A stretch of DNA of 64,000 nucleotides from Leucoraja erinacea (lineage: Eukaryota): positions 23,994,001 to 24,058,000 of the forward strand of contig NC_073394.1 of NCBI RefSeq assembly GCF_028641065.1. The letters are read 5' to 3'. The position numbers were made by a program, and so were the translations under genes. Below the pieces are notes generated by a model. It saw only the letters and a list, made by a program, of their open reading frames with translations. It did not search any database and was not told the origin of the DNA. The first letter of the stretch is position 1. Each line of letters opens with the position of its first letter. This document shows, piece after piece, positions 3,032 through 63,022 of the stretch.

Positions 3032-3352
3032 CTAGACCAAGTGCAGACGCGTTGGGTCTGTTCCCCCAACGTACGCTTGTGGGGGGGGGGGGGGGAGGCG
3101 GCATGCAGTGTCACACACACTAACGTGAAGGGGCAGAGACAGAGAGAGAGACGCACAGAGAGGGGCAAGAGGGATGGGGGGTGGAGAAGAGGGAGGGTGG
3201 GTGAGGGGGGAATGGTGGGGGAGGAGGGGAGGAGAGAGGGAGGAGTGAGGGGGGAGAGAGGGGGTGCTGAGGGGGGTGAGGTGGGGAGCAGGGAGGGGGA
3301 GGAAGGGGGAGGGAAGAGGGTAGGGGGTGAGGGGGGGAGTGGGGGGGGGGGG

Positions 3353-3383
<31 letters not shown>

Positions 3384-4020
3384 TGTGGGGGGGGGGGGGG
3401 GGGGGGGGGGGGGGGAGGGGGGGGGGGGGGGGAGGGGAATGAGGTGGGGGCAGGGGGTGGAGGGAAGGGGAGGGGGTGGGGGGTGGGTTGGGGGAGGGGG
3501 GGGGGGGGGGGATGGAGGGGAAGGGAGAGAGAGAGAAAGGGAGAGAGACGGGCGGAGAGAGAGAAAGAGAGAGGGGTGGGGAGAGAGAGGAGGGGAGAGA
3601 GAGAGAGGGTGCCTTTTTACTTAAACCCAAACAATCATTTGCAGGCAGTGCTTTTTTCCCTCGAATTAACCATATTTTCATTTTCAAACCACATTATGGG
3701 TACTCACAGCTGTGGAGACATTTGCTCAGTGTTATTTAGAGCTCTGATTGAGGCACACCACTTGCAGAGATTGATTGAGGCACCCACTTCCTGGTTTTAT
3801 AGTCCCTCCCCCTCCCTCCAGCAGAGAGAATGGGGAATGTTGTAAAAACATTAATATCTCTGTCATTATTCATCGACGGGAAAAATCCTCGGCACACATG
3901 CGGCGGAGGGGGGCTCTGAGCGAGGTGGCCAAAAATGACGGCCGTAGATGGCAGCGTTCTCTCGGAAATTGCAGCACAGTAGGGCAAAAGCAGTCAAGAA
4001 CAGAGATTTAGTAATATAGA
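3032..4020 (-). mobile_element. Non-autonomous Helitron-like element with G/GA-rich interior
   Basis: Minus strand reads A|TCTATATTACTAAA ... CAGACCCAACGCGTCTG hairpin-CACTTGGTCTAG|T: TC start, hairpin + CTAG end, A/T target, no TSD. Confidence 0.75.
3078..3610. repeat. Poly-G / GA low-complexity tract
   Basis: Long G homopolymers at ~3340-3430; source of the spurious Gly/Pro-rich ORFs. Confidence 0.9.
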
Positions 4021-4984: not shown

Positions 4985-6125
4985 TGTCTTGGCTGTGTGT
5001 TTAGGGTTGTTGTCCTGTTGGAAGGTGAACCTCCGCCCCAGTCCAGAACGCTCTGTAGCAGGTTTTCACCAAGGATCTCTCTGTACTTTGTTCATCTTTC
5101 TCTCAATCCTGACTAGTCTCCCAGTTCCTGCCGCTGAAAAACATCCCCACAGCATGATGCTGCCACCACCATGCTTCACCGTAGGTATAGTATTGGCCAG
5201 GTGATGAGCGGTGCCTGGTTTCCTCCAGACGTGACGCTTGGCATTCAGGCCAAAGAGTTCAATGTTGGTTTCATCAGAACAGATAATCTTGTTTCTCATG
5301 GTCTGAGACTCCTTTCGGTGCCTTTTGGCAAACCCCTAGCGGGCTGTCATGTGCTTTTTACTGAGGAGTGGCTGCTGTCTGACCACTCTACCATAAAGGC
5401 CTGATTGGTAGAGTGCTGCAGATATAGTTGTCCTTCTGGAAGGTTCTCCCATCTCCACAGAGGAACTCTGGAGCCCTGTCAGAGTGACCATCGGGTTCTT
5501 GGTCACCTCCCAGACCAAGGCCCTTCTCCCTGAATTGCTCAATTTGGCCGGGCGGCCAGCTTTATGAAGAGTCTTGATGTTTCCAAATGTCTTCCATTTA
5601 AGAATGACAGAGACTGCTGTGCTCTTCGAGACCTGCAATGCTGCAGAAATTGTTTTATACCCTTCCACAGATCTGTGTCTCGACACAATCCTGTCTCGAA
5701 GGTCTACGGACAATTCCTTCATCTTCATGGCTTGGTTTTTGCTCTGACGCACTGTAAACTGTGGGACCTTATATAGACAGGTGTGTGCCTTTCCAAATCA
5801 TGTCCAATCAATTTAATTTACCACTGATGGACTCCAACCAAGTTGTAGAAACATCTCAAGGATAATCAATGGAAACAGGATGAACCTAAGCTCAATTTTG
5901 AGTGTCATAGCAAAGAGTCTGAATATTTATGTAAATGTGATATTTCAGTTATTTCTTTTCAATTACTTTGCAAAAATTTCTAAACACCTGTTTTCGCTTC
6001 TTCATTCTGAAGTATTGTGTGTAGATTGATGATAAAAAAAATGAATTGAATCAATTTTAAAATAAGGCTGTAACGTAACAAAATGTGGAAAAGTGAAGGG
6101 GTCTGAATAATTTCTGAATGCACAG
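4985..6125 (-). mobile_element. Truncated Tc1/mariner (IR/DR type) with defective transposase
   Basis: ORFs 5336-5752 (paired-like HTH, GRPAK) and 5066-5299 ([19 protein letters not shown]); further FQQDNNPKHTAK motif at ~4990-5025; left end CTGTGCATTCAGAAATTATTCAGACCCC flanked by TA (6126-6127); inner DR ~5910-5935; right end missing. Confidence 0.92.
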
Positions 6126-6959: not shown

Positions 6960-7270
6960 GAAAAGTACGGCATGGAAACAGGCCTTTCAGCCCACGGAGG
7001 TTGATCATAATGCAGAGACCATCACCTTTTTGCACTTGTTCTATGTTATCCCACTTTCTCATCCACATGATCTGCACACTAGGGGAGATTTACAGATGCC
7101 AATTAACTTACAAACCTGCAAGCCTTTGGAATGTGGGAGGAAACCGGAGTACCTGGAGGAAACCCACGTGGTCACAGGGAGAATGTGGCAACTCAGCACA
7201 GATAGCACCCAAGGTCAGGATTGAACCTGGGTCTCTGGCGCTGTGAGGCTGCCAGCTCCACCAGCATACT
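6960..7270 (-). mobile_element. V-SINE (HE1-like)
   Basis: tgtgggaggaaaccggagtacctggaggaaaccca V-domain in reverse orientation; CR1-like tail. Confidence 0.75.
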
Positions 7271-7439
7271 GGCGTGGACGGTCGTGTCTGAAATGCATCT
7301 TTGGTTCAATTCAATACAACACACTGCAAACATAAACATTAACTAGACATTAAGTGTAAATACTTTATTAGTGATTTTATCAGTAGAAACCTCTTGCTGG
7401 GGTTCACTAATAGTTTTCAGACCTGCATGGAAAGATTAC

Positions 7440-8869: not shown

Positions 8870-9165
8870 CTTTAGACTTCGGAGATACAGCGCGGAAACA
8901 GGCCCTGGGACCCACCAAATTCGCACTGACCAGCAATCATCTGTACACTAACACTATCCTATGCACTAGGGACAATTTCCAATTTTACCGAAGCCAATTG
9001 ACCTACAAACCTGTACATATTTGGTGTGTAGGAGGAAAGTGGAGCACCCGGAGAAAACCCACGCAGTCACAGGGAGAACGTACAAACTCCATCCAGGCAA
9101 TACCCGTAGTCAGGGTCTCTGTCACTGTAAGGCAGCAACTCTACAACTGCGGCACTGTGCCACCC
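8870..9165 (-). mobile_element. V-SINE immediately after the UEVLD stop codon
   Basis: Same family sequence, reverse orientation. Confidence 0.75.
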
Positions 9166-10009: not shown

Positions 10010-10205
10010 TTTGAGTTCTGAGAAACAGGGACAATTTTTAGAGGGCCATTTAACTTACAAACCTTTTGGGATGTGGGAGGAAACCCTAGGTCCCGGAGAA
10101 AACTCACACAGTTACAAGGGGAATGTGCAAACTCCACGCCTACAGGACCAGAGGTCAGGATCAAACCTGGGTGTCTGGCGCTGTGAAGTAACAGCTGTGC
10201 CACTC
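10010..10205 (-). mobile_element. V-SINE
   Basis: gggatgtgggaggaaacc...tgcaaactccac family motif. Confidence 0.7.
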
Positions 10206-10733
10206 TGAGGTACTTGACCCCTCACTCAGGGGAAACGTTCTCCCTGCATCTCTCAGCATCAGCCCCCTTAAACATCTTCACAACTCCAAAGAATTTTCCC
10301 AGTCAGCCTAATCTGTCCTTCTATGGCACACCCATCATTCCCAGAACATCCATTGCATATGCTTTATGGCAAGTTCATATTTTAAGAAAGCAAACCAAAG
10401 ATATGCACAGTATTCAAGGTGTGGTCTCACCAAGGTTCCATACAATTACAATTAGTCTTCCCAACTCCTGCAATCAGACCTTTTAATGGACGTTAATATT
10501 ACCCCTCCAAAATGCTTGCTCCTCCTTTACGCTGTCGTGCAGTGATATGTCCACAGCGACGTGAGGCGATATGAAGAATAAGAGTCTGGACAAGCAACAA
10601 GAAGTATCAAAATAGCGGTGGCTGAAGTTCATGCTGCAATTAGGCCTGTTTGTGAAATATATTGTCCCAGAATGAGACAATAATTAGAGCTATGAGCAAA
10701 TGCTTAAAACACTATACTGTACATGTAAAATAT

Positions 10734-11519: not shown

Positions 11520-12383
11520 GGGAGGTTTCATGGCAGTCGGGTCACGACCCATGACCCGCACTGTTGCTAGGCTACTCCAAATGGATTACACGCAAAGTAC
11601 TGCAGGTAGGCACTTACCATTGTTTCCAGCGTAGCGGGCCCGTTAAAACCCGCTGAAATTGTCAATTTTTGCGCTGTAAATAATTATGGAAATCGGGATA
11701 AGCGTGTGAGACATTTAGCCTACTTCCAAACGAATTCCAAAAGTGAGGAAAAATGACGATAGAAAGAAACGAGCTGAAGGGACAACAACAGCCAGAGTGC
11801 TTAGCGAACATTGGCCGTTTGCTCACTGCATTTCATCAACTAATTGTGTTTTTTCTTGATTCCTTTGGCATCTAAAAAGTTTCAGAAATGATCAATCTGG
11901 CTGTAATTTTTTTAAATCGCCCATGGTTCTCGTGGGTTTTTACATACAAAATGAAACGCATCTGAAGAAAAATTTACAGCCAGATTTATCACTTCTGAGA
12001 ATTTTTAGATGCCAAAGGAATCAAGAAAAAACACAAATAATGCCTTACTTGATGAAATGCAGTGAGCAAACGCGATAATTCCCAATATTTTCAATGTTTA
12101 CCAAGCACTTTAGCTGTTGTTGTCCCTTCAGTTCTAGCTTCTCTATACCTTCATTTCGCTTCACGTTTGGAATTCTGAAGTTGGGTACATGTCCCTCACA
12201 CTTACCCCGACTCCCACATTTTTTTCAGCGCAGAAATTCAACATTTTGGCGGTTTTTAACAGGTAGGAAAGTACGCGTTTCTACCATTAATAACATATAC
12301 CGGAAGTGCCGGATGTCATCCAGTTGGAGTTAGCGGCTCCGTGCGTCGAGCCCTATGACCCAGTGACCTTCCGTGCAACCCCC
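11520..12383. mobile_element. Foldback-type non-autonomous DNA transposon upstream of TSG101
   Basis: Termini GGAGGTTTCATGG / CCGTGCAACCCCC; long imperfect internal inverted repeats (e.g. 11760-11912 vs 11967-12147). Confidence 0.7.
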
Positions 12384-18914: not shown

Positions 18915-19222
18915 GCAGTGCAGTAACACAGCTGGTAGAACCTCTGCACCAGAACCTACAGCATCAGAGACCCGGGTTAGATCTTGACGGTGGATGCTGT
19001 CTGTGTGGAGTTTGCATGTTCTCCTTCTGACCATGTGCGTTTCCTCCAGGTGCTCCGGTTTCCTCCCACATCTTAAAGATGTGTGGGCTTGTAGGCTAAT
19101 TAGTGTCTGTAAATTGCTCCCTGCTATGTAGTGAGTGGATGCAAAAGTGGGATAACATAGAATTGGTGTGAGCACGTGCTGAAGGGCCTGCTTCCATGCT
19201 GTATCTCTCGAACTAAAACTAA
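18915..19222 (+). mobile_element. V-SINE
   Basis: tRNA-like head, V-domain tttcctccaggtgctccggtttcctcccaca, (actaaa)n tail. Confidence 0.8.
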
Positions 19223-19803: not shown

Positions 19804-19965
19804 CAATGTGTTAGTTCATAGATATAGATAGGAATATAATGTTTATCATTGAACTTTTCTTTGTATTTGAAATAAATCCTGATCTCCTGCGTTTATCCTA
19901 TTTAAATAAACTATAATGTATTTTGGCGACAAGAAGTTCTCTGTCTGACCTCTTTATCTTTGCAG

Positions 19966-20129
19966 GAAATATGTATAATATCCCTATATGCGTGTGGTTA
20001 CTGGACACTTACCCTTACAATCCTCCAATCTGCTTTGTAAAACCCACCAGTACCATGATGATTAGAACAGGAAAGCACGTTGATGCCAATGGGAAAATCT
20101 ACCTCCCCTATCTACACGAGTGGAAACAT
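19966..20129 (+). CDS. TSG101: TSG101 exon 4 ([27 protein letters not shown]...HEWKH)
   Basis: tgcag acceptor; gtgagt donor. Confidence 0.97.
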
Positions 20130-20845
20130 GTGAGTATCACAGGATTTAAAGAAGACAATTACTTGTGCCCCTGCGTTCTACCGAAGAGGCAGATATTGGC
20201 ACCTACGTTCTTGGGGAGAGGCATTTGTTGGCAGCTGTTACCCCTAGAGGTAGTCAGAGACAAATATTCTGAGTAACAGAGTATGGAAGCGATGGAAGAA
20301 GTTAGATTATGGAGTGTCAACAAATTCATTTAATGGAAATCTAGGTCCTTCAGTCTGTACAAAATTATAAACTAATGCACGAGAAATCTCTTCGACCCAG
20401 TAAAATGACTCTCCTCACGGCTCTAACCCTGTCATTGTCTAACTTAATTTAAGAATGCATTTAAAGTGTATGGAGCCAACATTCCTAGAATCCCGAAGAC
20501 TTGGTGGCTTTCAATGCGGATTGCTACTCTGAAGGAGAGGGAATTTAGAGAAGTTAGATTTTGGATAATGCCTGCCGAAGTATGTCGGAGGAATTGGATC
20601 AGCAGAGGCGACTGATGTCAGAGCTCCATTTTGCTGCTCTTTTGAATAACATCCCTCGTTCCTTTTCTGTGGTTAGTTTAAGTTTGTGAGTTTGTTCTGT
20701 TGCGCTTCTGCTGTTGATCTGGTTTGTATTTCTTGACATTGTATCTCTGTCATCTTTTCAAATGTATTCAGTAGCATCTCTACGGAATTATGAATAGAGA
20801 ACATTGGTGAGAAACATTAATAAATGTCTTGTCTTTTTATATTAG

Positions 20846-26900: not shown

Positions 26901-27517
26901 ATCAATGAAACTGGAGATAAAAGTTCCTCTTCCGTCAGGCTTATCGACCCAATATTTCAGTATGTGAATCCACTCTTCTTGGCCCAACATACCATTTTTT
27001 TGGATTCCCACTATTTTCTTATTGCTAATTGTGGAGTTTCACCAATACCAACAGGAATACTTTCTTCCAGTGTTTTTTCATTTTAATTATGGAACTTAAG
27101 TTCCAATGTCCCCCATTGGTTTAATCAGACAGTAGTTTTAACCGCTTTAGTCCATTCACCATCCACAATTAAAACATTTTTCTTGATGTCCATGTCACAA
27201 TTTTGTTTTCGTGTTTCTCCGTTTGCCTCTTCCTGCAAAATGTTTCCTTTAGAGACTCTAAATGAAAACATTTATAAAAGCATAAAATGAAAGATTCTGA
27301 GCTTTCACTCAGTTCTTTTGAAGTGCTATTAAGGTTAACAGCAACACCAGAAGAAAGGTGTGGTCTGTCTTGTGTTTGGAAATGACCAGATCAAAGTGTG
27401 TGAATTGAATCTATTCCAAGGCTCAAGGACAATGTGTATATTTTGTCCTGGACAGTTTGCTGATTGAGCTTAATAAGAGTTTAATTATTTGTCAACATCA
27501 AGCTGTTTGTGTTGCAG

Positions 27518-27717
27518 GTCCCGGCAGAGACACCATTAGTGAGGATACAATCCGTGCTTCACTGATCTCTGCAGTTAGTGATAAACTGCGCTGGCGGATG
27601 AAAGAGGAAATGGACCGTGCCCAAGCTGAACTTGATGCCCTCAAACGGACAGAGGAGGACCTAAAGAAAGGCCACCAGAAGCTGGAAATGATGGTCAATC
27701 ACTTGGATCAGGAACTG
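27518..27717 (+). CDS. TSG101: TSG101 exon 8 (PGRDTISEDTIRASLISAVSDKLRWRMKEEM...DQEL)
   Basis: tgcag acceptor; gtaaga donor. Confidence 0.96.
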
Positions 27718-28200
27718 GTAAGATCAAGTCACAGTAAAGGATTGCAACCTTTTCTAATCTAGTAATGGCAGCTCTCATTACTTATTGCACCATAAATTTG
27801 CCAGGAGGACTAAAAGATTAGCCTAATAATTTCTATTTAAACATGTTTCAGGTCAGATTTTTACCATGCAAGTTGCAAAGATCAGGATTACACCCTCCAG
27901 TCTGACTTACTCAATGATCCTGTCAATGTAGTAAAATCAGTGGAACAGTCTTAACTGCAGGCTGTAAAACATGTGTCTGGACATAATTTGGAACACAGTT
28001 ATATTAAGAAAAGTAAATTATCAACCTGCAAAAGGGCTGCTCCAAACGAGCCAGTTCCAAATTTAACCAAATTTCCTTGCCTCAGAGCAAAACACAAAGT
28101 GCTGGAATAACATGACGAGTCATGCAGCATCAGTGGAGGGAACGGACAGGCAACATTTTGTGTTGGGACCCTTTGGCCCGAAACCATGCCTATCTATTCC

Positions 28201-29322
28201 ATATAACAATTACAGCACGGAAACAGGCCATCTCGGCCCTACAAGTCCGTGCCGAACAACTTTTTTCCCTTAGTCCCACCTGCCTGCACTCATACCATAA
28301 CCATCCATTCCCTTCTCATCCATATGCCTATCCAATTTATTTTTAAATGATACCAACGAACCTGCCTCCACCACTTCCACTGGAAGCTCATTCCACACCG
28401 CTACCACTCTCTGAGTAAAGAAGTTCCCCCTCATGTTACCCCTAAACTTCTGTCCCTTAATTCTGAAGTCATGTCCTCTTGTTTGAATCTTCCCTATTTT
28501 CAAAGGGAAAAGCTGATCCACACATCTCTGTCTATCCCTCTCATCATTTTAAAGACCTCTATCAAGTCCCCCCCTTAACCTTCTGTGCTCCAGAGAATAA
28601 AGACCTAACTTATTCAACCTTTCTCTGTAACTTAGTTGTTGAAACCCAGGCAACATTCTAGTAAATCTCCTCTGTACTCTCTCTATTTTGTTGACATCCT
28701 TCCTATAATTGGGCGACCAAAATTGTACACCATACTCCAGATTTGGTCTCACCAATGCCTTGTACAATTTTAACATTACATCCCAGCTTCTATACTCAAT
28801 GCTCTGATTTATAAAGGCTAGCATACCAAAAGCTTTCTTTACCACCCTATCTATATGAGATTCCACCTTCAAGGAACTATGCACGGTTATTCCCAGATCC
28901 CTCTGTTCAACTGTATTCTTCAATTCCCTACCATTTACCATGTATGTCCTATTTTGATTTGTCCTGCCAAGGTGTAGCACCTCACATTTATCAGCATTAA
29001 ACTCCATCTGCCATCTTTCAGCCCATTCTTCCAAATCACTCTGTAGACTTTGGAAATCCTCTTCATTATCCACAACACCCCCTATCTTGGTATCATCTGC
29101 ATACTTACTAATCCAATTTACCACACCTTCATCCAGATCATTGATGTACATGACAAACAACAAAGGACCCAACACCGATCCCTGAGGCACCCCACTAGTC
29201 ACCTGCCTCCAACCCGACAAACAACCATCCACCATTACCCTCTGGCTTCTCCCATTCAGCCACTGTTGAATCCATCTTGCTACTCCTGCACTTATACCCA
29301 ACAGTTGAACCTTCTTAACCAC
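28201..29322 (-). mobile_element. Young 5'-truncated CR1 LINE (RT domain)
   Basis: 257-aa ORF with GVPQGSVLGP and YADD motifs; intact 3' tail; ATTCC duplicated at 28196-28200 and 29323-29327. Confidence 0.95.
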
Positions 29323-29619
29323 ATTCCTTCCACAGATGCTGCTTGACCCGCTGAATTATTCCAGCACTGTGTTTTGCCCATCTTTTTGAATAGCGGATTG
29401 CCAACCTTCGTTTAAGGGAAAAATTATATTTTTATTTCAGTGGATATTATATTTATATACTAGGAATTGCAGATGCTGCTTTACACAAAAAAAAAGGTGC
29501 TGGAGTAATTGAGCAGGTCATGCAGAACCTGGATAGGTGTGTATGTTTATAATCAATCTAATGTTTTCATATTCATTTTTGAATATTTTCTAACTATTTT
29601 AAACTCCATAAGCTTGCAG

Positions 29620-39428: not shown

Positions 39429-39546
39429 CCTTGCCCGACACAATCTTGGCAGTGTGGAGGAAAAGGCTACCATGCTGCAGGTCCATCATCTCCCCCTTCA
39501 ATTTATCCTCCATTACATCCACTAGAGCCAACTCATCTGCCAGATC
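39429..39546 (-). CDS. LDHA: LDHA exon ([39 protein letters not shown])
   Basis: ttcag acceptor; gtgagt donor; not in the ORF track. Confidence 0.95.
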
Positions 39547-40145
39547 CTGAAACAGACAACCACAAATCACACATGTTCAAGTGGGCAAGACACCAAGAGG
39601 CTAATGCCATGAAGTCCTGCAGTGTTACGGTTTGATTGTTTTTTTCTTTCAAGTTACATACTTCTGGCTTGGATAACATTTAACTACAAGTTTTATTCTC
39701 TGCCCCATCCTCCTTCTACACGGTCCCACAAACTCTCTCTCCCTCCACCAAAACACCTGTTGACACTTTCACAATTCCCCCCACTCCCAACATAAATGAG
39801 TGTGGGACGAAGTGGGGGTGGAAAATTATACAGCATTTCTATTGCTGATAGCTCTCGGAAAGGTTTGCTTGGTGGTTGTTCAACTACAGGCAACATCATT
39901 CCAGGGTAGCCAGATGAACAATGGCAAGGGATCCTCAGCCTGCTAGAATCAGCATCTTGAGTGGAGGTGTGGATAATAGAGAGATGGTAAATGAACAGAA
40001 TTCAAATTTGGCAAATATCACAATCACATGCAAGCGACTTCGAGGCATGCCAGATTTTCCATTTTGAAGGGTTCAATAACTATGGCATCTACATCACTCT
40101 TGTCCTGGTGGGATTTACAACTCTGTCACCCAAACCTTGTCTTAC

Positions 40146-40274
40146 CTTCATCAAGATGCTGATGGCACATGCCATTCCTACTGCACCCACACCAACAACT
40201 GTTATCTTGTTGTGTGAGCTCTTGTCTTGGGATGTCTCCAACTGGCCAATTAGCTTTTCCTTCAGGTTTGCCAT
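40146..40274 (-). CDS. LDHA: LDHA first coding exon ([10 protein letters not shown]...[16 protein letters not shown])
   Basis: ATG at 40274; gtaaga donor; acceptor tag/cag 5-8 nt upstream of the ATG. Confidence 0.95.
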
Positions 40275-43200
40275 GTTTGCTGCTAACAAGAAACAATAGA
40301 CATCAGTTCACTCATCTTCAACCACTTCCCCAGAAGTCAACTGTAAATTTAATTTTAATTTTAAAGACATTTTCTGTCACCAATTCAAAGTCACTTGGTC
40401 TGCTCGAGTCCTTGCTGCTCGAGGCATGATAATAACCAAATTCACTCGTATATAGTCCAATTCCATTGCTGATTTTAAAAACTGCCAAGTTACATTTAAC
40501 TCAACTTGCCTCTTTATGATGGAATTTCTAATGTGAGAATTTCTACACATAGAGTAAAAAGGATAAGCTCTGCGGATGAGCCGATTAGCAGTCTGGTTAC
40601 TTTCGCCAATGTACCGAAGGATTATAGTCGAATGCCATAGACAACAGTTTCAGGTTCACTGCAGTTCAAAGTATATTGATAATAAAAGACAGAAAACACT
40701 ATGAAATAGACAATTTGAGGCAAGAAGCTTGGGTAGCTTCGAACAATGAGAAAATCAAAAGGAACAAAGTCAGCAAAATCAAGTTATGCGACTTGCAGCT
40801 CAAATCAGGACAAAAATGTTAGAGCAGGGAAGCAAAAAGAAAATAGCTGAATAAATTTGAACACCGTCCTAATCTCTGATTGCCAAGCTAAAATGACAAG
40901 CAGATAACGTAGATTTAGGCATTCGAGAATCAATTCATTTAGGGTAAGGAAGGTTTAAGGAGCATACTATACAAGTTTATCAATTGCTAAAATGAAACTA
41001 CTGCTCCATTTTCCAGAATCGGGAAACACTTGGTCAAGTTAAAAGTAGAAAATAGATTCGACACAAGCACTTCTGTCTAAACTAGATCTGGGAAGTAGAT
41101 GGATGGAAACATCTGCATAATGTTATATTAGAGGGGGCGAACAAAATGACAGGTGACATTTATTTTATTTTATTTATTATTTTCTTTTCTATTTATTTAT
41201 TTATTAGGGGTACAAAAGGTTACAGTAATACACACCACATATATCTTATTACATTTGTTGTACTCCTTCATTTTTTGAGCTTTAAGATTTAAGGTTAAAT
41301 TTTGATTGTCCAAATTGACCACTGGGACTTTGTGCTGCACACTTCAGTATTTCCAGAGATCACTCCAGTTACTCTTCCCAGTTACTCTGCACATTGTTTC
41401 AGAATCAAATATGCACAATAAATAGACTGTGAGATGAAGATTTGCACTTACTTTGCTCTTCAAAACCCTACTATGCCTTTGTAATTGTTTCTCCATAATC
41501 TCACATTGCTGGTAAATGTCATTGACAGGTTCTTTATTTTTTTTTAATACAATAATTTAAATTATTTCTGCTAAGGTTAATTTTTTTCTCAATATTGAGT
41601 CAGTATTATATTTCAACTAATCTGCTTGATTATATACCTGACCCAAATCAGTAACCCCTACCCAAGCGCAAAATTAGTTTCTGCATCCAGGCTATATATG
41701 GCAATAATGTCAGGTTAGCCGAGACGTAGAAATCTTGCCGAGTTACAAGCCAATAACTACTTAGTCGCAATCAATAAAATGACAAACCTTGCATTCTGCA
41801 CTGATTTATGAGCTCAAGTTTCCACCTTTCTATTCAGGAATGGGTTGGTGGGGGGTGGGGTGGAAGAGGTTTCCGCAAGTAGTAAATCTCTCTCTGCTCC
41901 CTAGGTGGAATGCATTGCAAATAACCTTGTCCTGTGACCTTCTTTCCTCCATTTTATGTTGGTATCAGGTTTTCACATTTCACTCATCACATTTCCTCGG
42001 TCTACAGAATTTAATTCCCCCCCCCCCACTTTTTTGCCTTTTTTAAATATCCAATTCTTCACAACGCTGGCTGGTTCTGACTACTTGTCCTTCATGTTGG
42101 TTTCTCACTTACCAAGGTAGGAGTAACATTGAGTATTACAAGTGCATTTACCCAGCCACACTTGCCTTCCACCAATCTCTTACAGATCATCACCCAGCCA
42201 AACAATTATGCAATGTTGTGGACTCTTAAGACTGAACCTGGGCTGCTCAGGACCATCTTTGTCCAAATCTTCCAGGCTATTAACTAGGCTTCCCTCAACC
42301 ATTCCGACCTCAACTGATTTATCATTGTTCACTAACACATAAAATAATCATATCACCAATATCCACATTCCAGTTGCCTCAACAACATTTGGTTCAATTT
42401 GAATGGTCCACTGCTGGATGCTATTTCATCAAGACAAAGAATGGGAACACTTATATGACATTATCCAGCCACTCCGGCTTGTAAGGCATGAAATCTTCAA
42501 GTCTGTCGCAGCATTTTCAGATGACCCATTGAGGCACTCGTCACTATCGCTCAAGAAATAAAATAACCACTCATGGCCCATCCTACCTCTTCTGCATTTT
42601 GCAGGCTGTGACCAATCACAACTGCATGTTCTAGCTTCCGATTTACTGCAGTACTGGCAATAAGTACAGATGGCCATTTAGGATGGAGACGCAGGAGAAA
42701 GCATGGAGAAGCATTTAGTAGTTTCATATTTTAAACATTCTAATCATGGTATTGATAACCTTTTCCTGGGAACCTCTGGTCCATGACCACCTAAGTGCAG
42801 AAGACTATTTGAGGTGGCATTTGAGTACAGAAGCTACAGAAATCCTAAGTGGCAAAAGAACACACCTCACAAACCACCCATTCACGCCCTCACTGCCACA
42901 TTTGTGGATGATTCCACCATTCCCACATTGATCTCATCCACCGCCTCAAAAACAACAATATCAAATCATCTTTAATTCCTAGCAACTAACTATCAAGTTG
43001 AGATAAACGGCCAACTGTTGCCAACTAGCATCAGTCCAGTGATCAAGGAAGGAAGAAAAATTACAGGGGAAAGCAGCAAATAAGTCATTACTGCACAAGG
43101 ATCGCATGGCCATGTAAGAAACTACAGATGGCGGAATCTTGAGCAAAAAGCGAAGTGCTGGAAGAACTCAGCAGGTCAGGCAGCAGCTATGGATGGAAAA

Positions 43201-46200
43201 GACAGATGATGTTTTGGTTCAGAATGCTTTATCAAACCGATGGAGGAGGGGGTGGGGAGAGAGGGGGGGGGGTGGAGCAAAGCTTGGCAAGAGAGATGTA
43301 TACAGGCGAGATGGGGATTGGCAATAGAGGGTGGCAAAGGCTAGAGGCGAAATAAGAACAAAAAGGTGTTGGGTAAGGAAGGGTGAAATTTACAGCAGGA
43401 GGGAGGGATATGGGTGGAAGGGGACTAATCAGTCTGGAGGGTCCCGAGCCAAAATGTCAGCTGTCAATTCCCTCCCTAGATGCTGCCTGACCCACTGAGT
43501 TCTGTTTTGTTGTTTTGCCAAAGATCACGTGGTACTTTGAAGCACTAAAACATAATGGTTAACAGATGAATCAGCAGAGAAGTTATTCATTGTTCTGCTA
43601 TTAAAAAGCAAGTCATCTTTACAAAGAATATTATCTATCTCAAGTAACCACACCCAATAACGTGCAAACAGCTACACAGTGACACAAGTGAAGATCTTGA
43701 AGCAGCCAAAATATTTTATATAAACATTAAATGGCCGAGAAGAGGTAAATTACCTCAATAGTACAAAACTAGCTTTGTACTAAAAGTTATAGTTCAAACA
43801 CTTAATAAAATTCAACAATGGCTAATCTGCACATTGGAAGAAGTGGATAGAAAATTAACTTGTGCGGATGTTGCTAAATCAACTTCCTCTTGCATTAAAC
43901 CAGGTCGTGGCCTTACATTGCCAATGCAATATAGAAACATAAATAGGTGCAGTAGTCGACCCATCGGCCCAGCACCGCCATTCAATATGATGATGGCTCA
44001 TCATCTACAATCAGTACCCCATTCCCACTTTTTCCCCCATATCCCTTGATTACTTTCGTCCCAAATAAATGTAACTCTTATGTACACAAATTCTTAGGTA
44101 CACAAACTGTTACTTAGGTAACAGTCTTTGTGTACCTTCGATTTTCCAGCATCTGCAGTTCCTTCTTAAATAAATTTAACTCTTTCTTGAATCTATCAAC
44201 ATCCATGAAATTATGCAACCATTAGCTTCCTTGAATAAGAATTGCATAGTAAAGGAATCTATTTTGAATGATGAAACTGGCACAAAATACCAGTCTTTTA
44301 TCACATAGTATTAATCGTTATTGAGCTAACATGTCGAAGTCAAGACCTGAAATGCATGGGTACACATGTAAGAAATATGTAGAAAAGGAAAGCAACTTGT
44401 GGTTAGGGTTTGTGTTTTTAAATTAGCTTTCATTGAATTTCCATACAAAATATACAGTTTTGAAAACCCTAGTTGCCTTTTGCATTTCTTGCATTTGTAA
44501 GTCAAGTTCAGTAAGGTTTAATTTGTGTGATTGTGAAATTTCTTATTAGACAAGAGATCCATTCTCCATGGGGAGCTGTAACCAGTGATCCAGTAGTGGA
44601 ACTGTCTTTTAACTCCATTAAAACGTCCATCTAACCAATTTAAACTATATCTGATGCTATATAAAATGCTTTGCAAGTTATTAAAATTTTAAGTCAAAAA
44701 AATGCAAGTTCATAATCAGTGGGATTTACGTGGATCTGAAGATACTAAAAGGTCAGTTATTGAAAGCTTTGGGAAATATTATTTAGTCATTTCAAAATGC
44801 CACAAGCTTAATTGTGCAAGTTCCACATTCTCAAAGAAAAGCATCCGTCATGAAACCAGGTTCAGTAATATGAAACCATCCTTTAATCATTTTGAGCAGG
44901 GTTACAAGTTTAATCATACTATCGTGCCAGATCATAAAGAACCAATGGGTTTTGCTTGGTAGAGGAAACTATTCCACAAACGGAAAGAATCACCAATTTG
45001 CACTCTTACTGCAAACAATTTTTCCGTAAGAACAGATTTAGTATGGTTGACCACATTGGGGAGGTCACCACCTCTTCTACTACACAACACTAGTTCCATT
45101 CTTCACTATCCAATCATAGCCAGAGAACCAACAGGCAATGCACTCCATGTTCTCTTATGATTCCATTGAAGCTCCATACCTTATTTGTCTATTCAAGTCA
45201 ACTGATGCTCACATAAAAGTAGACCATCTGTTTTACTGATGACATTCTGCTCACTGTATTGTTACCTCTCTCAACTCCTCCAAACATCTCAGTTGTCTGG
45301 TTGCCTGGATTTTCATTCTGGATCAATCAAATACAGGGGAGGAAATCAATGCCACCATCTTTTCGTGGTGTGATGAAGGATAGTGCTAGTTGCTAAATTC
45401 AAGGGAATATTGGTGTATTCTTGATAAAAAATCAACCTCTATTGTGATTCTCATTCCACCAAGAATGTCTACCTCTATATCAGCAGACACTGTGCCTGTT
45501 TTGCCTAATTGCCGACTGAAGTGCTCTATGCATGTTGCTATTTATAGATTTTGCGCTCTTGGCTGAGCTCAAGTCTACCTTCCCTAAAATAGAGCTCACC
45601 CATGTCCTAACTTGCATTGCCCCATTGACTTATTACCTGTACTTACTGAATGATACTGGCTTCAGGTTAAGCTGTTACATTACTTAACTCTGCACCTTGG
45701 TGATTGCCAGTCAACCCCCCCCCCCCCCCCCGACACTCCTTCCCCCAGAAAAATGGCACTACTACTACTGTATGTATATATATATTTTATTGCTCATTAT
45801 TCTATGTTCGCTCTTTTGGGGAGATGCTAACTGCATTCCGTTGTCTCTGTACAGTACACTGCACAATGACAATATAGATTGAATCTGAAATGAAGGTTGA
45901 AAATACGTTCCCTTCAGTTCATCTGCTGCTGCCACTAACCCTGGATCCCAACCCCCACTCCACCTCTTCTCCAGCCCCAGAAACGAAATCTCTGCTTCCT
46001 CCATTGGTTCTCTTGAACCCTCACATTAATGACGTCACCATCCCTTTAAAGCTCCAAAATCCCCAAATCTACGTTTCCATCCATCTCAGGATACCAAAGA
46101 TACTCAGTCATGATATGGTAAATCGCGGTCAGAATTTGTCAGAAAACACTGTTGTTCAGCGCCGTTTAACGATATTGAAGGCACAAAATACATTGTTGCT

Positions 46201-47287
46201 CACCCCTCCCCCACTTTGAAAGCCCAAACCCATAATTACTCTATTCCTCACATCAGCCCATTGACATAAATGGTTTCTAATGCAAATATATCAAAGGGAA
46301 AAAAACATTATATTTTACATGTGAATTTGCCAAAGGAATTTTGGAAGTCATTTTACACATGCCATTCAGGACAAGACATGTCGTCACGTACGTCATATTT
46401 ATCCCGCTAGATTACAAATCTTCAAGTATTCTCCCACATTTATATAGAAGTGTGCAGGTTCGAATTTCATTTTACACAAAAATCGTATTGATCAGTCTGA
46501 AGAGGGGTCTCGACCCGAAACGTCGCCCATTCCTTCTCTCCATAGATGCTGCTTGTGTCTCTACCTTCGTATTAGCCAACTTCACGTGGTTTCAAAAGTG
46601 ACCAGCATATATGTGATAGCCTTTAATGGTTTTATACAACAATTTTGAAGGAAACATCGAGTTCACCACCAACTGGGTGAATTGTAATTCAATGTTAGAC
46701 CAATCTTAGCTCAATCCATGAAAGTCACCGCAGAAAATGAACGAGAGCAACGGCAGGGATACTTTTGCAACTAAAGGGCATCGCATGTATTCTGTCAACG
46801 GTGTTGGGTCGAAGAAAGCAATTGTTTAAATACTCGAATGGAATGAAGGTTCATATCAGAGCTGACCTGTGACTCCAAGTCACGGCAGAGCCGTGGTGTG
46901 GGTGCAGGTTAATTCATTTATAAATCCCACCCCACCCCGGTCGGGAGAGTAGTGCTGCCCCTTAGCACTTGTGTGCTCAGCAAGGCGAAGCCTGCGCCAT
47001 CGCACCAGGAACTCAGCACCATCCAATACAATTTCAATGGGGCTACGCCAAACACTAAATGAAAGCAAATACTCTTGCACCATGCTGCGACAGTGTACAA
47101 CGATATTTTAGTAGCGATGCAACTTCATTTCCTAAAAAAACAATTTACGTCAACACAGAGCTTCCATTTATAACATGCAAAATTGCGCAAAGGGTAAACT
47201 GCATGCAACCATTTACGTATATTCCGGTGATAACTATTTGTTTAAATACTGTAAACCACTCCAGCCACTCCAGCTGTTGCAACTTAC

Positions 47288-47540
47288 CTTCTTCGCCTGT
47301 CCGAGTACTGCAGTCAGACGCACGCTTCCGACACCCCTCTTTTAAGCAGCGCGTCACAATGCATCACGCATCGATCTGCATATTACGTCAGGGAGGTGCA
47401 TCCTGCCCTGTAACGCTGCAACAGGGAAGACGGTCGTGTCCGGAGTCACGTACTGTGGCGAAGGGGAAGTGGTTGGGTGAGGGGGAAAAAGTGCTTAGTA
47501 AAAAAATGGACAATGTAGTATTTGCATACACGTTCAGGGC
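47288..47540 (-). promoter_or_regulatory. Probable LDHA non-coding exon 1 (~47288-47315) and promoter
   Basis: AAG|GTAAGT donor at 47287; TATA-like CTTAAAAG 47339-47346; CRE-like TGACGTAA 47383-47390; RCGTG sites at 47365, 47447, 47529; local CpG enrichment. Confidence 0.7.
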
Positions 47541-49372
47541 AAATCGCCATAGAAAGATACTGGGTTAGAGGTGCATCCTTCACGGGGTTTGTCTAATTTT
47601 ACTAAACTGCCCAGAACATGATACCAAATAAACGGTATTGTATTGTATATTGTATTCTTAATAATGAATGAAAAGTCTGTCTTCGCCATCATTTTAAATG
47701 AATGGTCATTTGCACCAAAGATCCTATAGCGGATATTTGATTTGTACGGCCCTCCATCTTTACCCCAAGCAGTTTCCTCTGTGGCACGTAGAATTTCTAA
47801 TTCAAGTTGTTCTCTGTGCAATGTTTCATTTTCTACGTACCATGACGACGCGTTTTCAAATGGATTGCGCGCATTTACTTGGAATTTATAAAGCCAAAAT
47901 ATAGCGTAATTTGTTCCTAATAAATTACATTTGTGTGGCGCACTAAATCTACTAAACATCTCCTTCAAAAAAAGTATCAAACACGATTTCACATTGAAGA
48001 GATTAAAATAGGACAGCTTCCGAGTAAAAAATGTATAATGATATTGAGGTCGCGAAACCACTAAACACTGAAGAAAGATAATAATTGAAATTTGTGTGGG
48101 ATGGAGAGGTTTATTAAACTTAAAACGACGGAACGAATAACGTATGTTTGTCTCGGCAGTGATGCCTGGGGATTACGAGGTCAAATTACAAAGTAGAAAA
48201 AAAAACTGCAGATGCTGGTTGTAAATGTGATTTGGTTTAGATAAGGGAGGGCAGGGCGGTCATGACGAGAAGTGATTTCAGTAAGAATGGCGTAATTATA
48301 ATGGAAACTCGCTTTCCTTCTGGGTTATTTAAGTCAAGTTTTGTTGGCACGTCGATATTCCGGTGTGTAAAATACTCTGAAAATAATTCATATTGAGGTG
48401 ATTTAAAAAAATAATCACGAAGAGGAAATGTTTCAGCAAATGTTTATAGGTTTATCTAAATGATGTGGTTTTTATTTTAAACAAGGGGGTTTGGTCTCAA
48501 TTATTCTGGCTGCCAATTTACCAAATCATTTTGTCTTTAATTCTATTAATCAATGTAATAAGCGAGTTTGGTATTCTGACTGTGCATGCCCAAATCATAG
48601 GTCACTCACTATAAACATTCTCGGCGATGCTGTGTTGTGTGCTGGCTTGCGTTTCGTCCCTGGTCCGGGCACTATTGAGTTGCTGCTACCGAACTAGCTT
48701 ATTTGCAATCCTCCATCAAACCTACCAGGAGGAGAAAAACACTGCGAGAGCCTACAGTAAAAGCCTTCACTACGGCATTACACCATTACCTTCCTTCTCT
48801 CTTTCAGACTTCAATTACTACACCTTTAAAATTCTGGTTCCTCGTCAATTCTGCCCCTGCTAATTTGACATTAAATTTGGAAAGATATTTATTGGGACTA
48901 TAGTCGTTCTGGTAATATTCACTCTTTTGTTGTCACCTCCATACTTTTATAACTGCCTGTAATGGAAACATAGAAATTGAGTTTTGATATTTTGTGAAAT
49001 TTCCGAGACTACTAATTCTCAACTGCAGTACATCACCTAATTCCACCTTTGCTACAATTCAGCTGCTAAAACCTATTTATTGCACTAAGATTAGACTGGC
49101 CTTCCAAAGTATTGAATGGCCCCCTATTTAGCAGGCTATTCAATACACTGCTGCCCTTATTCTAGTTTATAACAACCAGGTTGGTTCAGCATTAAACAAT
49201 GTATTGATTTTAAGTTCTTGTGTTTTGTTTTCAAAATATTTCATAACCTCTCATGTGTGATCTCCTCTGGGCCTATATTTGAGACAGCATCCCTAGATTA
49301 AATTGCTCTAACATGGTGACTGAGCCTTTAGCTAACAAAGCCCAATCTATCAAAATACCCACCTCAATCCTT

Positions 49373-51050
49373 CGTAGGTAGACAAAAATGCTGGAGAAAC
49401 TCAGCGGGTGAGGCAGCATCAAGAAGAGGGAAGAAGAAAAGAAGAGGCGGAGACAGTGGGCTGTGAGGGAGCTGGGAAGGGGAGGGGAAAGAGGAAGAAA
49501 GCAGGGACTACCTGAAATTGAAGAAGTCAATGTTCATACCGCTGGGGTGTAAACTACCTAAGCGAAATGAGGTGCTGTTCCTCCAATTTACGATGGGCCT
49601 CACTCTGGCCATGGAGGAGGCACAGGACAGAAAGGTCGGATTCAGAATGGGAGGGGGAGTTGAAGTGCTGAGCCACCAGGAGACCAGGTTGGTTATTGCG
49701 GACCGAGCGGAGGTGTTGGGCAAAGCGATCGCCAAGCCTACGCTTGGGTCTCACCGATGTAGAGCAGCTGACACGAAGAACAGCGGATGCAATAGATGAG
49801 GTTGGAGAAGGTGCAGGTGAATCTCTGCCGCACCTGGAAAGACTGCTTAGGTCCTTGGATGGAGTCACGGGAGGAGGTAAAGCGACAAGTGTAGCATTTC
49901 CTGCGGTTACAAGGCAAAATACCAGGAGCGGGGGTGGGAAGGAACAAATTGACCAGGGAGTTATGGAGGGAGCGGTCTCTGTGGAGGGGAGATGGGAAGA
50001 TGTAGCCAGTGGTGAGATCCAATTGGAGGTGAGGAAAATGTCGGAGGATTATCTGTTGTATTGTGACGGCTGATAGGGTGGAAGGTGAGGACAAGGGGAA
50101 CTCTGCCCTTGTTACGAGTGAGGGGATGGGAAGTGAGAGCAGAGTTAATGGGTATAGAAGAGACCCGGGTGAGAGCATAATCTATAGTAGAAGAGGGGAA
50201 CCCCCTCCCCCCGTTCCCTAAAGAATGAGAACATCTCCGATGCCCTGGTTTGGAACACCTCATCCTGGGTGCAGATGTGGCGTAGACGGAGGAATTGGGA
50301 GTAGGGGATGGAGTCCTTACAGGAAGCAGGGTGGGATGTAGTTTAGTCCAGATAGCCATGGGAGTCAGTGGGTTTATAGTAGATGTCGGTCAGTAGTCTG
50401 TCAACTGCGATGGAGATAGTGAAGTCTAGAAACGGAAGGGAGATGTCGGAAATGGTCCAGGGGTATTTGAGTGCCGGTTGGAAATTAGTGGTGAAATGGA
50501 TGAAGTCAGTGAGTTCTGCATGGGTGCAGGTAGTACCAATGCAGTCTTCGATGTAGCGGACGTAGAATTCGGGGATAGGGCCACGGTACACTTCGAACAA
50601 GTGTTCGACGTACCCTATAAAGAGGCAAGCATAGCTTGGGCCCATGCGCGTGCCCGTAGCTATGCCTTGGATTTGGAGGAAATGAGAGGAGTCAATCTAA
50701 AAGTTGTTAAGGGTAAGGACCAGCTCCACTAGGTGGAGGAGAGTATCGGTAGACGGGGGTTGGCTGGTTCAACGGTCGAGGAAGAAACGGAGGGCTTTAA
50801 GACACTCCTAGTTGGGGATGGAGGTGTAGGGTGACTGGACCCATGGTGAAGATGAGGGAATGGGGGCCTGGAAAACGCAAGTCATGGTGGAGACGACGAG
50901 TGTGTGAGGTGTCATGAACATAGGTAGGGAGGGATTTAACCAGGGGGGATAGGATGGAGTCAAGTTATGTGGAAATAAGTTCGGTGGGACACGAACAAGT
51001 AGATATAATGGGTCTGCCAGGACAGTCAGTTTGTGGATTTTCAATCCTTC
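49373..51050 (-). mobile_element. Penelope-like retroelement (RT + GIY-YIG endonuclease), frameshifted
   Basis: ORF pieces MGPSYACLFIGYVE...RYIEDCIG...PFLD...YYKPTDSH (RT) and FTCTFSNLIYCIRC...LYIGET / RRLGDRFAQHLRSV...VAQHFN (GIY-YIG). Confidence 0.92.
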
Positions 51051-51469: not shown

Positions 51470-53637
51470 TTTTAGGCTGTTTTATTGTCATGTGTCCCAG
51501 ATAGGACAATGAAATTCTTACTTGCTGCAGCACAACAGAATATGTAAACGTAATACAGAACAGGAGATAAAAGTTCAGTGTGTCTATATACCATAAACCA
51601 TATATATATATATATATACACAATAAATAAACATATAAAGTGCAATAGTAATAATAGATTGTTATTGTTCAGAGCTTGTTTGATGTTGTGTTTAATAACC
51701 TGATGGCTGTGGGGAAGAAGTTGTTCCTGAACCTGGATTTTCCTGATTTCAAGCTCCTGTACCTTCTTCCCAATGGCAAAGGAGAGATGAGTGTGTGGCC
51801 AGGTTGGTGTGGGTCTTTGATGATGTTGGCAGCCTTTTTGAGGCAGCGACTGCGATAGATCCCTTCGATGGTGGGGAGGTCAGAGCCGATGATGGACTGG
51901 GCAGTGGTCACAACTTACTGCATTTCTTTCCGCTCCTGGGCGCTCAAGTTGCTGAACCAAGCCACGATGCAGCCTTTCATTATGCTCTCTACTGTGCACC
52001 TGTAGAAGTTCGAGAGAGTCCTCCTGATGTGCCTTCTTTATAATTGCACCAGTGTGCTGGGACCAGGAAAGATCTTCGGAAATATGCACGTTCAGGAATT
52101 TGATGTTTTTGACCCTTTCCACCATTGATATAAATGGGATTGTGGGTCCCTATCTTACCCCTTCCAAAGTCCACAATCAGTTCCTTGGTTTTGCTGGTGT
52201 TGAGAGCCAGGGTATTGTGCTGGCACCATTTGGTCAATCGGTCGATCTCACTTCTATACTCTGACATCAGTGATTCATCCCACAACAGTGGTGTCGTCGG
52301 CGAACTTGATGATGGAGTTCGTTCTATGTCCGGCTACACAGTCATGAGTATAGAGTGAGTACAGCAGGGGGCTGAGCTCGCAGCCTTGAGGTGCTCCTGT
52401 GCTGATTGTTATCGAGGATGACACATTTCCACCAATATGGACAGACTGTGGTCTGTGGATGAGGAAGTCGAGGATCCAATTGCAAAGGGATGCGCAGAGA
52501 CCCAGATCCGTGAGCTTGGTAACCAGCTTGGAGGGGATGATGGTATTAAACGCCGAGCTGTAGTCTATGAACAACAGCCTGATATATGAGTTTTTGTTGT
52601 CCAAGTGGTCCAGAGTGGAGTGGAGTGCCAGTGAGATTGCCTGTTGTGGCGGTAAGCGAACTGCAATGGGTCGAGGTTCTTGTCGAGGTAGGAGTTGATA
52701 TGTGCCATAATCAACCTCTCAAAGCACTTCATCACCACAGACGTTAGTGCCACTGGTCAATAGTCATTGAGGCACGTCACCTTGCTCTGTTTGGGCACCA
52801 GTATTATTGATGCCCTTTTAAAGCAGGTGGGAACCACAGACCTCAGAAGTGAGAGGTTGAAAATGTCTGTAAAAACTCTAGCCAGTGGGGCTGCACAAGT
52901 TTTGAGAACACGACCGGGTATACCATCAGGTCCAGGCACTTTCCGAGGGTTCACCCCTGTGAAGGATCTTCTGACGTCGGCCTCTGTGACTGTAACTGAA
53001 ATACCATCACAGCAAATGGAGGCTCGGGAAGGCACGTCAGTGTTCTCTCTATAAAAGCGTGCGTAGAACGCGTTGAGCTGATTTTGCCTTGTAGGAGGTG
53101 ATGGCATTCAAGCCCCGCCACAATTGCCGAATATATCCGTCTCATCCTCCAGCTTGGAGCAGAAGTCCCTTTTGGCCTTTTTGATGGCCTTACCAAGGTC
53201 ATATCTGGACTTCTTGTAGACCTCTGCATCTCCAGACCTGAATTCCCAGGATCTGTTCTTCAGAAGAATGCGGATCTCATGGTTCATCAGTGTGCTGGGA
53301 CCAGGTTAGGAAACACTCTGAAAGTTATTGTTGGGACGCAGTCCTCCACATATTTCCTAATGAAGTCTGTAACTACTGTGGCGTATTCATTCAGGTCCAT
53401 TGCCGAGTCCTTGAACATTGCCCAGTCTACAGATTCCAAGTAGTCCTGGAGAGTTGTTCCTCTGCCTCCACCGACCAGCTCTGTGCAGACCTCACCTCCG
53501 AGGGTGCTCTCTTCAATTACTGCCTGTAGACAGGAAGAACCAACACTGCAGTATGATCGGATTTACCAAAGTGAGGGCGAGGGATAGGGCGATAGGCATC
53601 CTTGATGGTCATGTAGCAGTGGTCGAGGGTGTTTGAA
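51470..53637 (-). mobile_element. Rex1/Babar-clade LINE, decayed ORF2 (EN C-terminus + RT)
   Basis: [49 protein letters not shown] and HFGKSDH motifs across frameshifted ORFs. Confidence 0.9.
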
Positions 53638-55319: not shown

Positions 55320-56505
55320 GACGGCAGCACAATGTTAAGAATTAAAATCTCTGAGACTGTCACAAAATTGTGCTGTTTGTGTGGAGTGACCGCGTGGTTT
55401 TCCTCCAGGAACTCTGGTTACCTCCCACATCCCAAAGACATGTGTTTCTACGTATATTGACCTCTGTAAAAATTATTCCTAGTGTGTAGGGAGTAGATGA
55501 TACAATGGAATAACATAATAAGTGTGAATGGGCGATCGATGATCAGTGTGGGGAGACAAAAATGCTGGAGAAACCATGTTGGGTGAAGCGATCGGCAAGC
55601 CTGCGCTTGTTCTCACCGATGTAGAGCAGTAGATGAGGTTGGAGGAGGTGCAGGTGAACCTCTGCCTCACCTGGAAAGACTGCTTGGGTCCTTGGATGAA
55701 GTCGAGGGGGGAGGTAAAGCGACAAGTGTAGTAGTTCCTGCGGTTGCAAGTGAAAGTACCAGGGGAGAGGGTGGTTTGAGTGGGAAGGGACAAATTGACC
55801 AGGGAGTTACCGAGGGAGCGGAACTGCGGAAAGCCGAAAAGGGAGGAGATGGGAAAATGTGGCCAGTGGTGGGATCCCGTTGGAGGTGGCGAAAATGTCG
55901 GAGGATTATCGCAGACCTCACTATCTCCATCGCAGGTAACAGACTACTGATCGACATCTACTAGAAACCCACTGACTCCCATGGCTATCTGGACTACACT
56001 TCTTCCCACCCTGCTTCCTGTAAGGACTCTATCCCCTACTCCCAATTCCTCCGTCTACACCGCATCTGCACCCAGGAAGAGGTGTTCCAAACCCGGGAAT
56101 CGGAGATGTCCTCATTCTTTAGTGAACGGGGATTCCCCTGTTCGACTCTAGATGAGGCTCTCACCAGGGTCTCCTCTATATCCCGTAACTCCGCTCTCAC
56201 TCCCCATCCCCCCCTACTCGTACCAAGGACAGAGGCCCCTCCTCTTGTCCTCACCTTCCACCCCATCAGCTGTTACATACAGCAGATAATCCTCTGACAT
56301 TTTCCACCCCCACATCAGTCTGAAGAAGGGTCTCGACCCAAAACATCGCCTATTCCTTCGCTCCATAGATGCTGCCTCACCCGCTGAGTTTTTCCAGCAT
56401 TTTTGTCTATCTTTGATTTTTCCAGCATCTGCAGTTCTTTCTTAACGATGATTAGTGTGGACTCGGTGGGCCAAAGTGCCTGTTCCATGCTATATCTCTA
56501 AACTC
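55320..56505 (+). mobile_element. V-SINE split by a Penelope insertion
   Basis: SINE body 55320-55551 resumes at 56446. Confidence 0.7.
55552..56445. mobile_element. Rearranged Penelope-like element with outward-facing termini
   Basis: GIY-YIG fragment on - (55575-55908), RT-linker fragment on + (55910-56305), terminus at both ends; 15-bp duplication CGATGATYAGTGTGG at 55537 and 56446. Confidence 0.85.
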
Positions 56506-62729: not shown

Positions 62730-63022
62730 GGTACAGCATGGAAATAAGCCCTTCGCCCCACTTCGTCCACGCAGACCATTGATCACCCGTTCACACTAGT
62801 TCAATGTCATCCTACTTTCCCACTCCATACACACTAGGGGGCAATTAACAGAGGCCAATTAACCTACAAACCCGCACATCTTTGGTATGTGAGATGAAAC
62901 TAGAGCACCCGGAGGAAACGCACGTAGTCACAGGGAGACCCTGCAAACTCTGCACAGACAGCAACTAAGGGCAGGATTGAATTTGGCGCTGTGAGGCAGC
63001 AGCTCTACCAGCTGCGCCACTG
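62730..63022 (-). mobile_element. V-SINE
   Basis: Family motifs in reverse orientation. Confidence 0.75.

Follow-up and report, generated by a model that had tools for sequence, protein, structure and literature searches.

The hammerhead-like motif at position 46497 of the 64-kb stretch of DNA analysed here (the window) is best explained as a minimal type I hammerhead ribozyme that fronts the terminal repeat (pLTR) of an abundant Penelope-like element of the Neptune type. The copy at 46497 is 5'-short, antisense to the gene in which it lies and decaying neutrally, and it likely never acts; we place the probability of this reading, taken as a whole, at about 0.8. Where the motif lies in the element, how the copies are oriented, how they decay and where they begin and end are direct observations. 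Minimal hammerheads at the ends of Penelope elements are already known in kind, having been described in 2014 in the pLTRs of Xena, Poseidon and Neptune elements (Cervera and De la Pena, PMC4209133), where they are reported as occurring in thousands per genome and as being inactive as monomers and weak as dimers.

The motif, CTGAAGA-G-GGGT(CTCG)ACCC-GAAA-CGTC on the plus strand at 46497-46524, was pointed out in a first-pass annotation of this DNA, and the letters and position of its 28 nt are as described there; by its sequence, the cut would fall after C46524 (Table 1). Its parts are those of the minimal hammerheads of PMC4209133: the CUGANGA box with one inserted base, the G10.1-C11.1 pair, a short stem II, the GAAA box, a loopless palindromic helix III with a C-G pair at 15.2/16.2, a UH cut site (here U16.1, then C17) and location in a pLTR. 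Stem II has at least 4 bp after the inserted base (assigned by sequence, with only one-sided variants), and ACGU is the majority form of helix III in young subfamilies. Helix I lies at the weak end of what PMC4209133 describes. It had been put at 2-4 bp, of which the lower figure stands, for the 46497 copy as for 29 of 49 descriptor matches; the upper does not, only a U.G and a G-C pair being available. The copy is a stub from which about 25 nt are absent after 46552 (family RNA reads have 25 extra letters at the junction), an internal deletion that recurs 0 times in 1.4 Mb of gene interiors. Its flanks may form a target-site duplication; among 314 sampled family copies, 18 have flanking repeats of at least 7 bp, compared with 6.2 in shuffled pairings.

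Table 1. Features of the window that bear on the hammerhead copy at 46497
Feature	Position	Strand	Basis or remark
Possible 7-bp target-site duplication TCGTATT, left copy	46483..46489	+	sequence
Short stub of Penelope terminal repeat (pLTR front and part of tail)	46491..46566	+	~80 nt
Helix I, 5' strand GU	46495..46496	+	sequence; 2 bp only
Hammerhead core CUGAAGA (C3-A9)	46497..46503	+	followed by one inserted base (G) at 46504
Stem II GGGU/ACCC, loop CUCG	46505..46516	+	sequence
GAAA box, loopless palindromic helix III (ACGU, 46520-46523) and C17	46517..46524	+	sequence; architecture as described in PMC4209133
Helix I, 3' strand GC	46525..46526	+	folding
Possible 7-bp target-site duplication, right copy	46567..46573	+	first three letters fit the element's own tail too
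Penelope relic with terminal repeat and broken hammerhead at 56320 (+)	55525..56447	.	inverted linker/GIY-YIG piece (-) and RT C-terminal piece (+)
Second, 5'-truncated Penelope relic: RT, CxxxxCxxC linker, GIY-YIG, terminal repeat	49363..50881	-	hammerhead part deleted
Intron 1 of LDH (A-type) gene, hosting the stub in antisense	40283..47288	-	spliced reads, translation, Pfam, PDB

A loose hammerhead descriptor has one match in the window, and 23 of 100 shuffles also reach one; by itself the loose pattern is not above chance there. Rfam, proposed earlier as a check, detects a hammerhead neither in the window nor in four further loci, a miss that is to be expected of motifs without helix III and is not counted against this one. 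It is the family that gives the motif its weight. Exact matches to the 28-mer, its inserted base set to N, number 15,577 in the 2.19-Gb genome (7,795 on the plus and 7,782 on the minus strand; reversed control, 0), and one exact sub-pattern of the motif has 33,712. A profile built from 30 family copies with the motif finds 32 fragments in the window at E<=0.1, among them all ten places at which decayed copies had been noted before; the core pattern is matched only by the 46497 copy. Assuming that the density in 1.40 Mb of sampled introns holds genome-wide, there would be ~965,000 fragments, ~75,000 of them with an intact motif, as against about 9,000 in Xenopus and 4,000 in the coelacanth (PMC4209133). 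The number is no record, since up to 120,000 type I hammerheads are given for the axolotl. The motifs of Fig. S3 in PMC4209133, as far as that figure goes, include none from cartilaginous fish, and a search for literature joining hammerhead ribozyme, Penelope and cartilaginous found none, the supplements of one chondrichthyan preprint lying outside its scope.

The terminal unit lies downstream of the GIY-YIG region, in sense, in 27 of 30 reverse transcriptase (RT) loci, with the core region present in 23, which supports the earlier assignment of a minimal type I hammerhead with a loopless ACGU helix III to a Penelope terminus. One long element (L091) begins at the hammerhead, its upstream flank being unrelated, and two loci (L092 and L093) are partial tandems in which the unit stands between GIY-YIG and the next ORF. 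The locus L059 has a natural open frame of 464 aa in which RT-like motifs (by eye) and a C-x4-C-xx-C linker precede a C-terminal GIY-YIG domain (Pfam E=1.9e-4, just under the curated cut-off); Pfam RVT_1 has no match in this frame, and a PDB sequence search with the Penelope ORF found nothing. The C-x4-C-xx-C before GIY-YIG is a hallmark of Neptune/Nematis elements, and Neptune is preferred on account of the linker and of its reported occurrence in vertebrates (PMC8557442). The Neptune-clade elements of PMC8557442 likewise carry RT, a CX2-5CxxC linker and C-terminal GIY-YIG in that order, together with partial tandems, inverted 5'-truncated copies, a tail extension and a hammerhead in the pLTR, and the pLTR here is recognized by its partial tandems, inverted 5' copies and tail end points. 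They differ, as far as PMC8557442 describes them, in the variable 27-nt tandem array found here in the 5' coding region, which runs from a few to >20 units in L093, L097 and L098 (oriented ~3000-3800).

Two Penelope relics lie in the window. The first-pass annotation had placed the decayed 56320 copy at the end of a Penelope fragment, and so it is: an inverted linker/GIY-YIG piece at 55525-55915 (-) stands in front of the C-terminal part of the RT at 55851-56303 (+), which is directly followed by the terminal repeat, with a hammerhead broken at G12 and 16.2. The inversion at 55525-56303 looks like the outcome of template switching or twin priming.

Other repeats share the window with these relics. 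A second dispersed SINE-like repeat of ~180 nt, unrelated to the Penelope terminus, occurs on both strands (7082-7263, 8984-9114, 10029-10207, 18956-19138 and 62820-63019). Relics of one Tc1-type transposase and two non-LTR reverse transcriptases lie at 5336-5797, 28549-29355 and 52275-53107 (-). A long inverted repeat at 11814-12072, with 72-nt arms that are 92% complementary, is probably a MITE-like fold-back element (a weak match to a plant miRNA model is far below cut-off), and an intron contains, at 3146-3607, a low-complexity run of about 460 nt that is almost entirely G/GA.

Clues to how the copies were made come from their ends. These were tallied in 140 of 160 planned stretches (1.40 Mb) between the exons of 39 genes with myosin, kinesin or ANF-receptor domains, in which the profile has 616 matches at E<=1e-3. 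The start lies 1-5 nt ahead of C3 in 335 of these and at the cut site in only 19, compared with 15 and 20 in the neighbouring bins. The 3' ends form two clusters in the tail, at model positions of about 105-114 and 125-129. Once two copies at stretch edges are discounted, 361 reach the front: 166 are bounded by unique flank, 107 stand head-to-head and 88 run through into the 3' UTR, diverged run-throughs possibly being counted as unique flank. Many run-throughs reach GIY-YIG coding sequence, and young, main and older sequence types are all represented among them. Close pairs number 147, of which 113 are head-to-head, 14 tail-to-tail and 20 same-strand. As in PMC4209133, most copies across the genome are single ones from truncated elements, to which opposite-strand pairs are added; one difference is that a single family with little master-level variation is seen here.

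From boundary counts, run-throughs and pair orientation, the templates were uncut, and the stubs are best read as by-products of autonomous elements. The first-pass annotation had proposed an amplified non-autonomous derivative. No sequence type or promoter that is absent from ORF-bearing elements, as would mark a SINE-like family, was found; a separate non-autonomous family is unneeded, since ORF-linked copies have the sequence types of the stubs, and the proposal lacks support. Fold-back at a TCAG-T-CTGA palindrome was considered as the origin of the head-to-head junctions and set aside, accounting for only 9 of 107.

The sequence of events might then be as follows. Transcripts of the element likely start a few bases upstream of the core. 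On this RNA, still uncut, the element's RT/endonuclease would find its priming site in the tail just downstream, and copying would run off the 5' end to leave stubs of 100-130 nt, often as head-to-head pairs; where the transcript is a tandem, copying would carry on into 3' UTR and ORF. Cleavage by the ribozyme is predicted to require a dimer, in which its ACGU pairs with the ACGU of a second copy. Lunse et al. have reportedly dealt with dimer cleavage of Penelope hammerheads. Given the 2 bp of helix I and the competition of a rival helix, the ribozyme would depend on the element's protein for its folding. The processing of element RNA is therefore likely to be slow, host RNA being essentially spared.

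A precedent is the anole Penelope hammerhead (PAc, a Poseidon element), which cuts only with the element's protein, and whose hammerhead mutants still insert in vitro (PMC11167929). PAc and the present element have in common a hammerhead near the 5' end, 3' end points that fall into two clusters in the tail, uncut RNA as template and RNA-seq reads of which none end at the cut site. PAc belongs to another clade, however, and protein-assisted cleavage is a PAc result only. That the ribozyme of the present family acts weakly, with the help of the element's protein, is likely on this model.

Folding calculations give an idea of what stands in its way. The purine-rich core is predicted to pair with the pyrimidine tract downstream, and because this rival helix forms, the predicted probability of stem II is 0.00-0.03 in the 46497 copy and does not exceed 0.06 in 25 of 27 intact copies. 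A forced dimer fold comes out 14-25 kcal/mol worse than the rival folds, in a calculation that has no positive control and ignores tertiary contacts. Folding the alignment returned no structure and is uninformative. An 'off-switch' hairpin, selected as such, was entertained and rejected: shuffled tracts fold as well or better (median 39/100) and disrupt stem II about equally, so that the hairpin looks compositional. The main subfamily does lean to the specific fold (3-20/100, 7 copies); the youngest does not.

Selection on the motif is hard to read from the copies. Divergence is 5.8% at non-CpG sites of the core, 6.1% in an invariant block downstream and 30% at CpG sites of the core, and core divergence is 12.1% in sense and 13.1% in antisense copies: the copies, cores included, are decaying neutrally. 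Conservation of the core, which had been suggested as a check, is found, the CUGANGA/GAAA core being kept in subfamily majority sequences that are 7-19% diverged, except for CpG decay at G12/16.2 in the oldest clusters; it is not diagnostic, since the downstream block is equally invariant. The companion check, covariation of stem II, came out negative. There is no common two-sided change in any stem pair among 279 copies, only one-sided, pairing-neutral changes and no compensatory subfamily. Position 10.3 is altered in 4,469 genome copies, and among the first 100 of these a count by eye gives about 5 in which the pair is restored. The family may be too uniform to reveal covariation. Five changes of the motif at the subfamily level (two loop bases, 11.4 A>G, C17>U and 1.1 A>G) are all compatible with the fold, which suggests, as modest evidence, selection in the active lineage.

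It is at this point that one must ask whether the hammerhead is vestigial even in active elements, its sequence being kept for an overlapping RNA start and protein-binding signal and not for cutting. The 2 bp of helix I, the low probability of stem II, the lack of compensatory changes, the copying of uncut templates and the normal insertion of the anole mutants in vitro (PMC11167929) are all consistent with this. Against it, none of the five subfamily-level changes touches the core or breaks a pair (rough p about 0.01 if transitions fall at random), and Penelope-like elements of many phyla preserve equivalent motifs whose helix I has 2 bp (PMC4209133 Fig. S3). We regard a purely vestigial hammerhead as unlikely, without being far-fetched, and retain a weakly acting one.

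The 46497 copy is likely of no consequence for its host gene. In 4 of 4 RNA runs, spliced minus-strand reads join 47288 to 40282/40279 and 40145 to 39545, and the exons encode lactate dehydrogenase (translation; Pfam Ldh_1_N; PDB matches to LDH M4/A, best 6LDH M4, which we take to be the dogfish entry). Since the copy is antisense to the gene, the LDH pre-mRNA does not contain the ribozyme, and two stranded runs have no plus-strand read depth in the bins flanking it. The intron has two acceptors 3 nt apart in the 5' UTR (40279 and 40282, NAGNAG type), both used in 4 of 4 runs. LDH (~39430-47480, minus strand) stands tail to tail with TSG101 (UEV domain) and together with a UEVLD-like gene (LDH domain), the exons at 2548-2856, 19917-20276 and 27409-27762 being on the plus strand; the grouping is presumably the same neighbourhood as in human.

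For host genes at large, the question is one of orientation. With the host strand taken from Pfam exon matches, the 616 in-gene matches divide into 315 sense and 301 antisense (p=0.6). Of the 341 copies that cover the core, 48 are intact, 29 in sense and 19 in antisense (binomial p=0.19; intact versus broken, Fisher p=0.28). A purge of intact sense copies is thus not seen, and the strand bias that had been proposed as a check is not borne out as a deficit; the confidence interval of the sense share is 45-74%, and with only 48 intact copies a slight bias (sense share down to 45%) is compatible with the data.

RNA reads tell much the same story. They come from raw-read runs with the same species label, four at the 46497 locus and four on L093, two of them shared. 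Stranded family reads over the core at 46504 number 906 in the hammerhead sense and 751 opposite in one run and 1,224 and 758 in another, and over the L093 core 5,446/5,337, 3,980/4,018, 5,185/3,670 and 4,263/3,510; hammerhead-sense reads are not depleted over the core. Neither the four runs at the locus nor the four on L093 list any accumulation of molecule ends at the cut site, ends being listed only at a fifth or more of local depth and reads coming mostly from other family copies. A low level of cleavage is still compatible with these reads, given fragmented libraries, the listing threshold and possible decay of cut products. A go-back (circular) joint at the cut site is absent among the 15 joints listed per mapping (226 and 227 others being unlisted), from libraries that are unsuited to finding one. 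Just upstream of the hammerhead in L093, a pyrimidine tract (7356-7437) has element-sense reads 3-8 times commoner than opposite ones in 4 of 4 stranded runs, an excess that may reflect either mis-mapping of low-complexity sequence or the boundary of an element transcript.

These counts bear most directly on the proposal that introns and UTRs have been colonized by a non-autonomous, retrozyme-like derivative whose same-sense copies pair in cis or in trans and cut host pre-mRNAs. Such a derivative would have material enough in the extrapolated intact motifs and in the RNA, where 43,610-63,891 records per run map to the L093 stretch, some of which derive from another repeat. Same-strand intact pairs do exist: genes contain four sense pairs whose members are within 10 kb of each other, and a natural dimer candidate is formed by two exact cores that share a strand at a distance of 103 nt (L018 and L019, G000:C1:2477692 and 2477795). 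Tandem retrozymes from Penelope ends have moreover been reported in vertebrates, including one chondrichthyan (bioRxiv 2026.07.22.740005). Those retrozymes share with the present family a type I hammerhead in a pLTR-related repeat (PMC7229834, bioRxiv 2026.07.22.740005); they are described as head-to-tail arrays with mostly canonical hammerheads and circular RNA, whereas the copies here are dispersed or head-to-head, the 46497 copy is single and only 20 of 147 close pairs are on the same strand. L018 and L019 both have an A.A mismatch at the closing pair of helix I, and the penalty on the dimer fold (uncontrolled as it is) also speaks against cutting. Self-cleavage of host pre-mRNAs, as the first-pass annotation had envisaged it, is left without support by the antisense position of the copy, the undepleted sense copies, the prevalence of inverted pairs and the lack of RNA ends at the cut site. 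ORF-linked copies have the sequence types of the stubs besides; we give a host-cutting derivative little credence, and it is likely that the family cuts host RNA to no meaningful extent.

A more extravagant variant would turn the ~75,000 intact, normally misfolded hammerheads into a latent, protein-gated nuclease network: wherever the Penelope protein is made, in the germline for example, it would fold and dimerise them, and thousands of host pre-mRNAs would be cut at once. Roughly half of the intact intronic copies are in sense, and the missing purge would be accounted for by a switch that is rarely thrown; we consider this a very long shot. The suggestion that the pyrimidine tract and CAG just before the core are a splice acceptor, and that splicing supplies a longer helix I as in Penelope of D. 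virilis, draws on that precedent and on long copies in which a pyrimidine-rich tract ending in CAG directly precedes TCTGAAGA, and is rejected because short copies often retain all or part of a CAG that splicing would remove, 360 front-reaching copies have no common exon-like sequence upstream, and no GT-AG/CT-AC joint falls at the site among the 15 joints listed (227 others being unlisted).

What this genome contributes, on the reading of the motif as the minimal hammerhead of a Neptune-type terminal repeat, is scale: about 1 million dated end-copies form an in vivo record that agrees with the copying of uncut RNA in vitro, and they mark the likely start of the element RNA. That no orientation bias is seen suggests that vertebrate introns can accommodate intact minimal hammerheads by the tens of thousands at little cost, which fits a protein-dependent and very low activity.
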